A DNA stretch of 63,900 nt, filler included, from Globobulimina sp. (taxonomy: Eukaryota): assembly GCA_003354225.1 (NCBI GenBank). It is 51 parts of 51 records of this genome, joined end to end, with 100 filler letters (N's around TTAATTAATTAA, not from the genome) between each part and the next. Parts side by side here need not be neighbours in the genome. Positions count along the whole stretch, not along the records: positions 42,682 to 43,836 come from PIVH01022159.1; 50 more parts are not named here. One strand, given 5' to 3'. The first letter of the stretch is position 1. Every line of letters starts with the position of its first letter. The notes under the pieces were generated by a model. That model did no database searches. It was not told where the DNA came from and was given only the letters and a program-made list of their open reading frames with translations. Both the position numbers and the translations under genes were made by a program. Shown one piece after another: positions 33,898 to 45,090 of the stretch.

Positions 33898-34914
33898 TAT
33901 CTCTCAAACCGCACTCAAAGAGTCAAATTTGGTACCAAATTATCGACATCTGCCCCTGTTCCTGTTGGTGTGCCACAGGGGTCCGTACTTGGGCCATTAT
34001 TATTTTTACTATTTGTAAACGACTTGCCCTCTGTTATTCGAAATTGCAAAGTCACTATGTTTGCAGACGACATTCAGTTATGCAAAAGCTATTGTAAAGC
34101 TGATATGTTAATGGCTAGTGAACAACTCCAATCTGACTTAAACTCAGTGGTAACATGGTGCAAACAAAATGGGCTTAAAATCAATCCAGTAAAGACTCAA
34201 ACTATTACCATTGGTACCAGCCAAAATCGAAAGTATCAACATTCGAATCCAATCCTTACCCTATCCGATCATGTATTGGAAAATGTGACCGAAGCCAAAA
34301 ATTTGGGACTTTTACTGGACCAAAATCTTAGCTTCCTGCCCCACCTAAATGCTGTCACAAGAAGATGCAAGCGTGATCTATTTGCTCTAAATCGTATCAA
34401 AAAGTGCATCCCACGAAAGACTCTAGTACATACAATTGAAACTACTATCTTCCCGAAAGCCTATTATGCACCATCCGTCATACAAGCGGCTCCTCCATCT
34501 TATATCAACCAAACTCTCACCCGTGTTGTTAATTTTGGTGCCAAATTGGTTTGTCATCTGAGAAAATTTGACCGGGCTACAGAAGCACGAAAAGAACTAA
34601 AATGGTTGGATGCCAAAACTCACTTGAAATATTGTACGCAAAATATGGCATACAAGATGTTTGTTGAAAAGAACTCTATTGTGGACTTTCATATTAGTAC
34701 ATGTAGACGATCAGTACGTATTAATGCAATGCCAAAATTTCAAATTCCATCATATTCGATCAATGCAGCCAGGAGGGCGTTTAGTTACAGGGCCCCGATG
34801 TTACTTAATGAAGCATGTGAAAACTTGAAAGTTGACATTAATGAACCAATATCTTGTAAAAAATTTAAACTTTTGTTGAAAGAGTTTTACGACAACTTCT
34901 ACCACAGAAGTTGA
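33898..34914 (+). mobile_element. Non-LTR reverse transcriptase C-terminal half (CR1/L2-like)
   Basis: YLSNRTQRV, GVPQGSVLGPLLF..VNDLP, FADD, LKINPVKT, KNLGLLLD. Confidence 0.95.
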
Positions 34915-37828: not shown

Positions 37829-38816
37829 ATGTCAACTCTCACCACCATTGGTGACCGAGTAAAACTGAAAGACTCCCATCTAATCGGCACAGTCCGTTTC
37901 ATCGGCGAAATCAAACAAAAAACAGGCATTTATTACGGCATAGAACTCGACGAAAAGAAAGGCAAAACTGATGGTTCCAGCTACAAAACATTTTATTTCA
38001 AGACCGAGCCTAAAAAAGGCGTTTTCATAAAACAACAGCAAATTCTAAAAACGAACACAAAATACAATCAACACGTACCACGCATCACTGTCGGCGACAC
38101 TGTCTTTGTACGAAAGTTTGCGTGCAACGCTGTCATTCGTTACATCGGTTCGCCAGAGTTCAAAACCAAACGCAAGCGCTCCAAATCCGGCGCCTTGGCC
38201 AACACTAAAAAATCGAGCCAGCGGTCCTTAGCTTCCACGTCAAACTCTCGCAGTGAGTTCAGCGAAGCTTCCACGTTGTCACTGACGCCAACTCCGACCA
38301 GTCCTCGCTCAGAGAAACAAAATTTAAGTTTCAACCACGAGCCCATTCAGCCCACCACAAGCAACATATGGTACGGTGTGGAATTGGCGCTGTCCAAAGG
38401 AAAAAATAACGGCAAAGTGCAGGGAAAATGGTACTTTCAATGCAAGCCAAAACATGGCTCATTTGTTAGGAAAGAACAGATTGAAATATTAGACGAGCAC
38501 AAAAAATCTCAAACCAAATACAACAGAACGTCAAAGAAAAAACGGCATGGTCGACAGAGGTCGCAATCGGTGGATTTGACATTGAATTTGGATGCTTTGA
38601 ATGCGAAGGGTCTCACTTTTAATGTTGGCGATGGCGTGAAAGGGAAAATTGATCCTAAGATTAAGAAAAAAGCTGTGCGTTCGAGGAAATCGACATTGAC
38701 TGCGGAGCCTCGGCAGTTGAAGAAAAAGAAAAAACAGTCAGCAAAACATCGGTCGACATCGTTGGCGGATCGGCGGGCAATGAATGCGAATACTAAGGGC
38801 AAAATGAATGTGTCTG
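37829..38816 (+). CDS. Tandem CAP-Gly domain protein
   Basis: IGDRV..GTVRFIG..YYGIELDEKKGKTDG; WYGVELALSKGKNNGKVQGKWYFQCKPKHGSFV. Confidence 0.92.
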
Positions 38817-42681: not shown

Positions 42682-43835
42682 TTCATATTATTATTCCAAA
42701 TGCTATTTAATTGTCCTTTCATTGCCGTCTTTGTATTTAATATCGTTCCAATTATCCAATTCCTTCCACTTTGACTTTCCGATACAATTTGAAGCAATCC
42801 ATCAATTTCACTCATATTAAAGTAAGAAAATAATCCATCAGCAATCCAAATTGTATCATAATCTTTTTTAAATCCATTACGTAATAAAACCTGAATCCAT
42901 TTATTATCTCGGAAATCAACACATAAACTCTTCACATTCTCTCTTTTCATAACCTTACATTTATTCACCAATATATCATCTCTATATTTAATAATATCTT
43001 CCAAATCCAATTCAAATATATTCACGTCATCCATATCCAAACATGCCATACGATATGGCCTTGAATCACAACCAACCCCCATAAAAACCACTTGTTTCTT
43101 CTTACCATTTCCAAATTCATTCATAGCTTTTTCAATTCTGTCATCAATCCATTTTGTTCTAAATACAATATATTTTAATAAATCTTTATTATATCCATTC
43201 TCATCATGCCCAGCACCAAATTCCATACTCATACTTATCTGCTTCAAATATTCAAAACCAACTGTACCAGCAAATATTTTTGCAAAATCATCACGCAACT
43301 CACCATTTTCCTTTTTGCTTTCAATGGCTCGACCTGCAGCCATGAACAATGATGTCTTGTCCAACGGAGATATTGTTTCATTTTTCTTTTCCTCCAATAA
43401 ATTATTACTGTTTGCTAAGTTCGAAAGCTCCTCAAACCATCCTAGTTTTTTAGCAAACTCAATAACTCCATCATCACATTTTCCCTGCAGAAAATAATCG
43501 CGATGTTGCTCGCTCAATGCGTTTTTTGCCGCATATTGCATATTAATTAATAATCTCGGACATGAACTGGGAACTTTATGTATCAACCCAGCGAATGGGC
43601 GCACTTTCAAAGATGTGCCCATAATAATTAACATATCACAGTTACCAAAATCCGTAGATAATGATTTGAAAAAATTATGCGGCAGTCCTTCACCAAAAAA
43701 TACAACATCAGGCTTAACCACACCGTCGCATTGATCATTTTTGCATATTGGTACCTCAGAATTCATTATTTTGGGAGTAAAATATTTTGCATCATACTTT
43801 TTTCTGCATTTTAGACACGTTCCCGTTCTGTAATG
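42682..43835 (-). CDS. Class I sirtuin fused to LCM/TIGR00027-like SAM methyltransferase (both ends truncated)
   Basis: CLKC..CKNDQC, KPDVVFFGEGLP, GTSLKVRPFA, PRLLIN; then TSLFMAAGRAIES, RTKWIDD, QVVFMGVGCDSRPYR, IFELD, WIADGL. Confidence 0.9.
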
Positions 43836-43936
43836 GNNNNNNNNNNNNNNNNNNNNNNNNNNNNNNNNNNNNNNNNNNNNTTAATTAATTAANNNNNNNN
43901 NNNNNNNNNNNNNNNNNNNNNNNNNNNNNNNNNNNN

Positions 43937-45090
43937 CTGTTCCATTCATCGAAAGACAATTGCAGGAAATGTGGCCGTGTTGTTTGCAAACAATGTCTAA
44001 AATATAAAATCAAAGATGTACGCAATATATGCGCAGAATGTTATAAATCAAAAGACAACGAAAACAGAAACAAAAACAAAAACATAAGTCCATTATCTAT
44101 AGAAAAAACCAACATCTATGCTCAATATGAAGATATGAAAAATAATCCATATTTATCTGAAGATTCACTAAAACAATACCAACGACAATTTAATCTGCCA
44201 ATGGCAATGCATAAACCAAGTCTCTTATCCGACACATCCGTGCCTGTTCCACAAAGTCTATTAGATTTCACCACTGATATCCCATTGCCTGGCAGTAAGG
44301 CGCCCTCTCCACACATTATCTCACCGCTATTGAAAGAGGATGACGACGATCAACGTTTTAAATATCAAAACCCAAACAAAAAACGTGCCTCCTTCACCCG
44401 TGAATTTCGTGAGAGGAAACTGTCAGATCATCAGCGTAAATCGAGTCAAAGTGTTGGCAGTATTGGACTGTCCAATGCATCGCATAAATCTCCAAAGTGT
44501 GTCAATGTAAAAAGGAAAAGTATCACTGTTATCAAATGGATTGCGGATGAAATATTTGATATTGATGAGAAATGTATGAAATTAGTAGAAGAGGCTTGTT
44601 ATTCGCAAGCAAAGATCAACAATACACAAGCGATGATTATCCGTTTGGATGGGTATAGTTTTGGGATCTTTACTGCTAAAATGAAGAAACCGTTTGATAA
44701 ACGTTTTCATTCCGCAATGGTGTATACGGCATGTGATTTGTTGCGCGAATTCGATGCGTATACCGTCTTTGTGCAAAGCGATGAGATTTTGTTAATTTAT
44801 CCAAGCTCACATCATCAAAGTAAGGCAAATTATTTATTTGCTGGGAAAATTGCTAAAATATTGTCCATTGTGTCTTCGTTTGCGAGCATGCGATTTATTC
44901 GCCATTTGCAAAGGGAATATTTGCATTTGGTGGATAAGGATGAAAATGTACAGAATTGCTTTGCGAGTTTCAATGGGAAATGTTTTAATATCCCGGATGA
45001 GAATGAAATATTTAATTACATCATATGGAGATTGAAGAAGAATGTCCGCGGATATCATAAGAAAATATTGACTGTAGATAATGAGTTTTG
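43937..45090 (+). CDS. FYVE-like zinc finger plus Thg1-like (tRNA-His guanylyltransferase) domain
   Basis: Open from contig start: NCRKCGRVVCKQC..ICAECY; then IIRLDG.SF..FT..KPFD, QSDEI, IFNYIIWR. Confidence 0.85.

Follow-up and report, generated by a model that had tools for sequence, protein, structure and literature searches.

One contig of the Globobulimina sp. assembly GCA_003354225.1 appears to hold a fragment of a genuine gene for a two-enzyme fusion of ~600 amino acids (aa), in which a SIRT2-type deacylase is followed by a linker and an OPCMT_like carboxyl O-methyltransferase, both activities being predicted from sequence. The contig, PIVH01022159.1, is one of the 51 that make up the 63.9-kb stretch of DNA analysed here (the window), each 1154-1156 bp long, sorted by length and separated by runs of N around TTAATTAATTAA. 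The gene fragment takes up exactly this contig, at 42682-43836 of the window (1155 bp; G+C content (GC) 33%, typical of the window). As far as our searches reach, this is a new domain architecture made of two known enzyme kinds, and we consider it highly probable that the architecture is real.

An earlier note on this DNA had described a single unbroken frame with the C-terminal half of a sirtuin and a methyltransferase. Such a frame runs stop-free from 43835 down to 42684 and encodes 384 aa (P0001). Domain scans bear out both assignments. Pfam SIR2 is found at residues 4-80, which correspond to profile positions 107-180 of 180 (E 3.6e-18); the score of 66.6 bits, against a gathering cutoff of 24, is that of the half-domain present on the contig. 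Pfam LCM is found at residues 163-350 (E 1.6e-32, 113.3 bits, cutoff 22.3), and with NCBIfam TIGR00027 the score is 117.8 bits (cutoff 93.55) despite the cut-off domain, the methyltransferase half ending at the contig edge ~70 aa short of its C-terminus. All of the motifs quoted in that note occur in the translation: CxxC...CxxxxC, KPDVVFFGE, GTSLKVRPFA and LIN in the sirtuin half, and KTS..AAGRAIES, FRTKWIDD, GVGCDSRPYR and FELD in the methyltransferase half.

The sirtuin half includes the FGE, GTSL and LIN motifs and the terminal LGW helix. It aligns with human SIRT2 (8xe7, 4.1e-31) over chain residues 149-273, from the Zn ribbon to the last core helix. Cysteines C10, C31 and C36 match SIRT2 cysteines, and C7 precedes the start of that alignment. 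Sirtuins are defined by two motifs, the N-terminal Rossmann motif for nicotinamide adenine dinucleotide (NAD), GAGxS...GIPDFR, and the catalytic His of the HG motif. The His had been expected just off the contig edge, and that is where it falls: because P0001 corresponds to positions 152-543 of P0002, the full-length orthologue, it begins two residues past the His (EAHGH in P0002).

P0002, of 612 aa, was found in a search of 5.8 billion proteins and is 67% identical to P0001 across 100% of the fragment. By its EukProt accession it belongs under the name of the foraminifer Bolivina argentea. SIR2 lies at 45-231 (194.2 bits) and LCM at 321-508, and the protein carries the sirtuin motifs GAGIS (45), GIPDFR (53), TQNID, HGH (150), FGE and GTSL. 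Among structures it matches human SIRT2 (4.2e-84), SIRT3 (8e-78) and Hst2 (4e-54). Its alignment with P0001 is collinear, the gaps being small and confined to the linker. The two proteins are identical at 97/133 positions of the sirtuin half and 162/235 of the methyltransferase half but at 5/14 of the linker, which is 6 aa longer in P0002. High identity in the domains and low identity between them points to two constrained domains joined by a free linker. A linker of roughly 20 aa had been proposed; a short linker does exist, but its variable part is ~14 aa (residues 134-147). Just after it comes the motif EEKKN, which is also found near the N-terminus of unfused paralogues of the methyltransferase, and so we count it as part of the methyltransferase module. 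The Bolivina argentea data set in EukProt is probably transcriptome-derived. Transcriptomes of the species, which EukProt may have used, are described in the available sections of PMC8153729.

For the junction, taken as the middle of the linker (~43415), Logan contigs of four public runs (X1, X2, X6 and X8) were aligned to the window; X1 is possibly the sample from which the window was assembled. Three records span the junction and reach 31 bases or more past it to either side: X1 record 2 (42806-43836), X2 record 6 (43366-43652) and X6 record 14 (43326-43709). These come from three runs and three studies, and they speak for the fusion on the earlier question of junction support. Run X8 covers 42711-42910 only. 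In X1, a contig of 1465 nt extends 434 nt past 43836, and one of 565 nt extends 411 nt past 42682. Insertions, deletions and joints are absent throughout the aligned Logan contigs.

The runs show 51 natural differences from the window, 40 of which were listed and classed. The frame is under purifying selection: 22/40 of the listed differences are synonymous and 18/40 non-synonymous, with 21.7% synonymous expected from the observed substitution spectrum (binomial p 4.5e-6), and none is a stop (5.2% expected per change). By region, the ratio of synonymous to non-synonymous is 6:4 in the sirtuin, 3:3 in the linker region and 13:11 in the methyltransferase. Over residues 144-157 the differences are synonymous or conservative only, and the linker is in frame. 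At 43206, 43209 and 43221 the window differs from X1, X2 and X6, that is, from all runs covering these positions; through one of these differences His210 becomes Gln, in a methyltransferase loop that is variable, and the three are either an allele or small assembly errors in the window. The earlier note had allowed that the linker might be an intron or an intergenic region separating two genes. Spanning contigs, natural differences and the architecture of the second species together exclude this: the linker is coding, and collinear with that of the foraminiferal orthologue.

The methyltransferase half was compared by phmmer with all Protein Data Bank (PDB) chains. Its solved relatives are Rv0731c (6id6, 4.4e-12) and ML2640c (2ckd, 3.1e-10); the third match at E <= 1 is a chance hit (E 0.71). 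In the ESM Atlas the best 3 of 30 matches are bacterial LCM clusters, and all 30 belong to the same family set; full-length P0002 had no usable match there. Neither outcome is proof that the fusion is absent from the Atlas. As the available sections of PMC10193983 describe them, ML2640c and Rv0731c are small-molecule carboxyl methyltransferases of the OPCMT_like family for both of which 3-OPC is a substrate; enzymes related to them accept cholic, cinnamic, indole-3-acetic, naphthoic and quinaldic acids. The family has >10,000 homologues, and its physiological role is stated there as uncertain. Homologues from Chlamydomonas, plants and fungi are mentioned as well. According to the same source Thr20 and Tyr/Phe194 hold the carboxylate, and ten residues bind S-adenosylmethionine (SAM): Arg28, Arg90, Ala113, Ser114, Gly115, Asp135, Asp164, Leu165, Glu189 and Gly190.

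Equivalent residues were read from the 2ckd alignment, in which chain numbering is the PMC10193983 numbering minus 3. Both carboxylate landmarks are kept in the fragment (Table 1) and in P0002, as Thr319 and Tyr497. Six of the ten SAM-binding residues are identical to those of ML2640c, namely R169, R226, G255, D277, D307 and G334 (Arg28, Arg90, Gly115, Asp135, Asp164 and Gly190). The other four positions are replaced (A113G, S114V, E189D and L165F, the last at a contact made through the main chain). At the 189 position P0002 still has Glu. Taken over the two species, both halves of the fusion keep cofactor-binding and landmark residues, the NAD motif and catalytic His of the sirtuin half being seen in P0002. 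Since the landmark and SAM-binding residues are kept, the expected chemistry of the second half is methyl-esterification of a carboxylate. That its nearest characterised relatives are small-molecule carboxyl methyltransferases likewise narrows the reaction to carboxyl O-methylation and makes the lysine freed by the sirtuin a less likely methyl acceptor.

Table 1. Features of the sirtuin-methyltransferase fusion gene, in window coordinates
Feature	Position	Strand	Basis
Fusion-gene open reading frame fragment P0001, 384 aa	42684..43835	-	No stop, both ends open; aligned with P0002 residues 152-543
C-terminal half of class I (SIRT2/3-like) sirtuin core, residues 1-133	43437..43835	-	Pfam SIR2, SIRT2 alignment
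Zn-ribbon module, C7/C10/C31/C36, CxxC...CxxxxC	43728..43817	-	Four Cys all kept in P0002
Variable linker, residues 134-147, FEELSNLANSNNLL	43395..43436	-	Stop-free, gapless cover by independent contigs
OPCMT_like / TIGR00027 (Pfam LCM) SAM-dependent methyltransferase (predicted), residues 148-384	42684..43394	-	Pfam, NCBIfam
SAM-binding motif I GVGCDSRPYR, residues 253-262	43050..43079	-	G253-V254-G255 equivalent to ML2640c Ala113-Ser114-Gly115 (2ckd alignment, PMC10193983)
Thr161, equivalent to carboxylate-binding landmark Thr20 of ML2640c	43353..43355	-	
Tyr338, equivalent to second landmark Tyr194 of ML2640c	42822-42824	-	

The statement that the two domains are normally separate agrees with an architecture search, in which both Pfam domains occur in 1/76 matches from the 5.8 billion proteins, that one being P0002; none of the 74 other sirtuin matches is joined to a methyltransferase. 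With P0002 as a phmmer query, 14,886 matches were obtained among 1.84 billion representatives; the best 150 are all matches to the sirtuin, and none of these 150 has a methyltransferase domain. When the methyltransferase part was run by phmmer against 224 collected proteins, it matched P0001, P0002 and the bacterial protein P0065 only. Conversely, a methyltransferase profile gave 6784 matches, the best 120 of which were listed, and the SIR2 domain is absent from all 120; this list is not exhaustive, because P0002 itself lies outside it. JGI metagenome contigs gave no fusion and one weak methyltransferase match (L001, 23% identity), and IMG/VR contigs gave no fusion and 5 distant sirtuins (23-29% identity). 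A literature search found no description of a SIR2-LCM/TIGR00027 fusion, and the words sirtuin and methyltransferase are absent from the available sections of the Bolivina/Nonionella paper, PMC8153729.

The sirtuin relatives of the fusion are eukaryotic SIRT2-type proteins. An unfused one named Nonionella stella (P0079, 435 aa) shares 57% identity with P0002. Two metagenome proteins, likewise unfused (P0003 and P0004; 55-58% identity to P0001), end right after the sirtuin core. Close sirtuin relatives also include P0078 and P0080, one of them named Phlyctochytrium planicorne, which have tandem SIR2 domains with the first truncated; this could be a tandem duplication or a gene-model artefact. 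P0101, a partial protein of 596 aa named Cichlidogyrus casuarinus, has a dienelactone hydrolase (esterase-family) domain fused to its SIRT2-type sirtuin and may be a gene-model artefact.

For the methyltransferase, 8 of the best 120 of 6784 profile matches form a eukaryote-like clade: P0229 (named Nonionella stella), P0230 (from MMETSP), P0225, P0226, P0231, P0256, P0270 and P0318. The other 112 are bacterial-type, and Mycobacterium where named. In all eight, LCM is the sole Pfam family over the gathering cutoff. Four of them (P0226, P0229, P0230 and P0270) have an N-terminal extension of ~130 aa, which by eye reads as a putative coiled coil. Four other proteins of 611-616 aa (P0291, P0297, P0322 and P0325) come from Logan and JGI contigs; of these, P0291 and P0322 were scanned, and each has two tandem LCM/TIGR00027 domains. 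Of 286 matches confirmed among GTDB genome contigs, the best 80 show 26-31% identity and belong to cyanobacteria (Moorena, Calothrix, Xenococcus) and to Mycobacteriaceae and other Actinomycetota. No bacterial donor of the methyltransferase was identifiable among these contigs in a scan that detects only sequences fitting one peptide pattern.

A tree was built from 29 rows: the 2 fused sequences, the 8 unfused eukaryotic ones, 13 loci chosen from 81, and 6 chosen bacterial proteins, with cyanobacterial and other actinobacterial sequences included. The two fused sequences are joined (100/100), and the pair lies beside the eukaryotic unfused clade (87/75, unstarred), apart from both bacterial groups. 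In an earlier tree, whose 26 bacterial rows were of one narrow clade, the fused pair was also nearer the eukaryotic paralogues. This placement is suggestive only, because most eukaryotic rows, both fused ones included, have a deviant amino-acid make-up and because the fused branch is long. A bacterial origin of the methyltransferase half, which had been raised as a question for phylogeny, is not borne out as a recent event: the best prokaryote matches reach only 26-31%, and the tree puts the fused pair beside eukaryotic paralogues. We favour a reading in which the fusion arose in foraminifera or relatives of theirs, by attachment of a pre-existing eukaryotic methyltransferase paralogue to a SIRT2 gene.

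What the fusion does can be proposed with less assurance. If both halves are active and act on the same target, the sirtuin half would bind a protein and strip an acyl group from a lysine, restoring its positive charge. The tethered methyltransferase would then esterify a nearby or C-terminal carboxylate of that protein or of its complex, so that a negative charge is lost. Deacylation and esterification would thus change the local charge in the same sense, and a single polypeptide would tie the modification to the supply of both NAD+ and SAM. We put this model of deacylation and methyl-esterification of one target forward tentatively, as one that might well be right but should not be presumed. 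It is supported by the finding that the methyltransferase clade repeatedly carries an N-terminal add-on, either the sirtuin or the ~130-aa extension, and such add-ons in the eukaryotic clade fit a targeted enzyme better than a free detoxifying one. Support comes also from LCMT1 and PPM1, which are protein carboxyl methyltransferases of the same Pfam family (PMC10193983, available sections). A narrower form, in which the protein is a two-cofactor charge-switch enzyme whose OPCMT_like domain esterifies a protein carboxylate on the target deacylated by the SIRT2-type domain, we regard as unlikely; that the target is cytoskeletal or a phosphatase is speculation.

Several points weigh against the fusion being such an enzyme or limit what can be said of it. 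Off the contig lie ~151 aa at the N-terminus, which hold the catalytic His and the NAD motif, and ~70 aa at the C-terminus, so the window copy cannot be judged as a whole. The window has Asp instead of the SAM-tail-binding Glu189. The architecture is found in two distinct sequences only, plus near-identical strain variants. The RNA nature of runs X6 and X8 is a guess, and for that reason expression of the window copy is not claimed. No LCMT1 or PPM1 chain was matched by the methyltransferase half in the phmmer comparison with all PDB chains at E <= 1. In the available sections of PMC10193983, the characterised OPCMT_like enzymes are monomeric, act on small molecules and prefer rigid carboxylic acids, and none of them has a known protein substrate.

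Other accounts of the contig concern its integrity and its owner. An artefact, be it a chimera made in assembly or non-coding DNA mistaken for coding sequence between two neighbouring genes or exons, might be suspected of a contig of only 1155 bp in a very fragmented assembly. With gapless, joint-free contigs across the junction from three runs, each of a different study, the same architecture in P0002, and an in-frame linker showing only synonymous and conservative differences at residues 144-157, we regard an artefact as extremely improbable. As to the owner, the gene is most probably eukaryotic and foraminiferal. GC per window contig ranges from 25% to 47%, a spread that suggests a mixed or heterogeneous source, and foraminiferal data sets come from field-collected cells (PMC8153729, available sections); both facts would suit another low-GC eukaryote, or a giant virus, travelling with foraminifera. 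This is a question of origin and not of mechanism, and we give such an owner little credence. The best whole-fragment match is named Bolivina argentea, and a close unfused sirtuin relative of P0002 and one unfused methyltransferase paralogue both carry the name Nonionella stella. At 33% GC the contig is typical of the window, and IMG/VR yields only sirtuins of 23-29% identity and no fusion. Elsewhere in the window lie genes of ordinary eukaryotic kinds, for proteins of the CAP-Gly and Thg1 types, an RNA polymerase I A49-like factor, a class II cAMP phosphodiesterase, a ZIP transporter and a reverse transcriptase, which indicates that the source is a fragmented eukaryotic assembly.

Granted a real fusion, the methyltransferase could instead act on a free small-molecule carboxylic acid, the sirtuin being only co-expressed or co-localised with it and the two sharing no protein substrate. 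A speculative version has it esterify an acid released downstream of deacylation or of NAD+/nicotinamide turnover. The nearest solved and characterised relatives, ML2640c (3.1e-10) and Rv0731c (4.4e-12), methylate small acids, and both carboxylate landmarks are kept, which lends this account some weight; we nevertheless think it rather unlikely. The direct products of a sirtuin are nicotinamide, O-acyl-ADP-ribose and the free lysine, none with an obvious free carboxylate. Fatty acids from defatty-acylation are poor candidates too, because the tested enzymes refuse flexible acids such as lauric acid (PMC10193983, available sections). Moreover, the fusion is kept at 67% identity between species, which suggests more than co-expression. 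Alternatively, the methyltransferase half could have lost catalysis and now regulate the sirtuin, either as a sensor that binds SAM or another ligand or as a targeting domain. In the window Glu189 is replaced by Asp and Ala113/Ser114 by Gly/Val, which would agree with such a loss, as would the long tree branch to the fused pair (1.92). Yet neither catalytic landmark is lost, nor is any other SAM contact, Glu189 is retained in P0002, and the methyltransferase half is conserved like the sirtuin half, both in identity (162/235 and 97/133) and in its ratio of synonymous to non-synonymous differences (13:11 and 6:4), so that a purely regulatory role seems improbable.

A stable fusion to a protein deacylase would give a concrete hint of the substrate or pathway of OPCMT_like enzymes, and the protein would be a natural single polypeptide relying on both NAD+ and SAM. 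If the charge-switch proposal were true, this would be the first protein-directed member of the OPCMT_like family and a Rosetta-stone clue to the role of that family. The finding is limited to a poorly studied protist group, and its function is what we infer.

Some features of the rest of the window deserve record. The Rfam scan of the whole window gave 0 matches. Open reading frames that span the spacers (with runs of X in their translations) are artefacts. The contig adjoining the fusion gene, 43937-45090 (+), consists of one frame open at both ends. It encodes a Thg1 tRNA-His guanylyltransferase domain (residues 214-353, 1.7e-25) and a weak FYVE-type zinc finger (residues 4-38, E 9e-4, under the Pfam cutoff), and may be a further unusual fusion. 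The RVT_1 reverse-transcriptase frame at 33970-34911 (+), on a contig of 39.7% GC, is probably a retrotransposon fragment. The protein at 37829-38815 (+), on a contig of 43% GC, has two CAP-Gly domains (6.2e-39); it is of the microtubule-binding type and of possible interest given the very dynamic microtubules of the organism.

Each half of the fusion can be set beside known systems. With the class I sirtuins SIRT2, SIRT3 and yeast Hst2 (PF02146) the sirtuin half shares the Zn ribbon, the FGE, GTSL and LIN motifs and the last core helix. It departs from SIRT2 in its second Cys pair, CxxxxC in place of CxxC, and from all three in that its C-terminus leads directly into a methyltransferase. The methyltransferase half shares its landmarks and SAM contacts with the OPCMT_like enzymes (ML2640c, 2ckd/2uyq; Rv0731c, 6id6; MnMT2-6; TIGR00027). 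Those known are standalone monomers of ~300 aa, mostly from Actinomycetota (PMC10193983, available sections), whereas the fusion is eukaryotic, ~612 aa long, and has its methyltransferase behind a sirtuin; the difference is architectural and not catalytic. LCMT1/PPM1 and TcmP (PF04072) fall under the same Pfam LCM model as the fusion methyltransferase, for which the same carboxyl O-methylation is likely. The fusion has no specific sequence likeness to LCMT1/PPM1 beyond that shared model (phmmer, PDB, E <= 1), and OPCMT enzymes are <20% identical to LCMT1/TcmP (PMC10193983, available sections). The unfused eukaryotic paralogues have AAGRAIES and FRTKWIDD (and, in P0225, EEKKN) in common with the fusion; they are ~30-33% identical to the fused form and differ from it in standing without a sirtuin.

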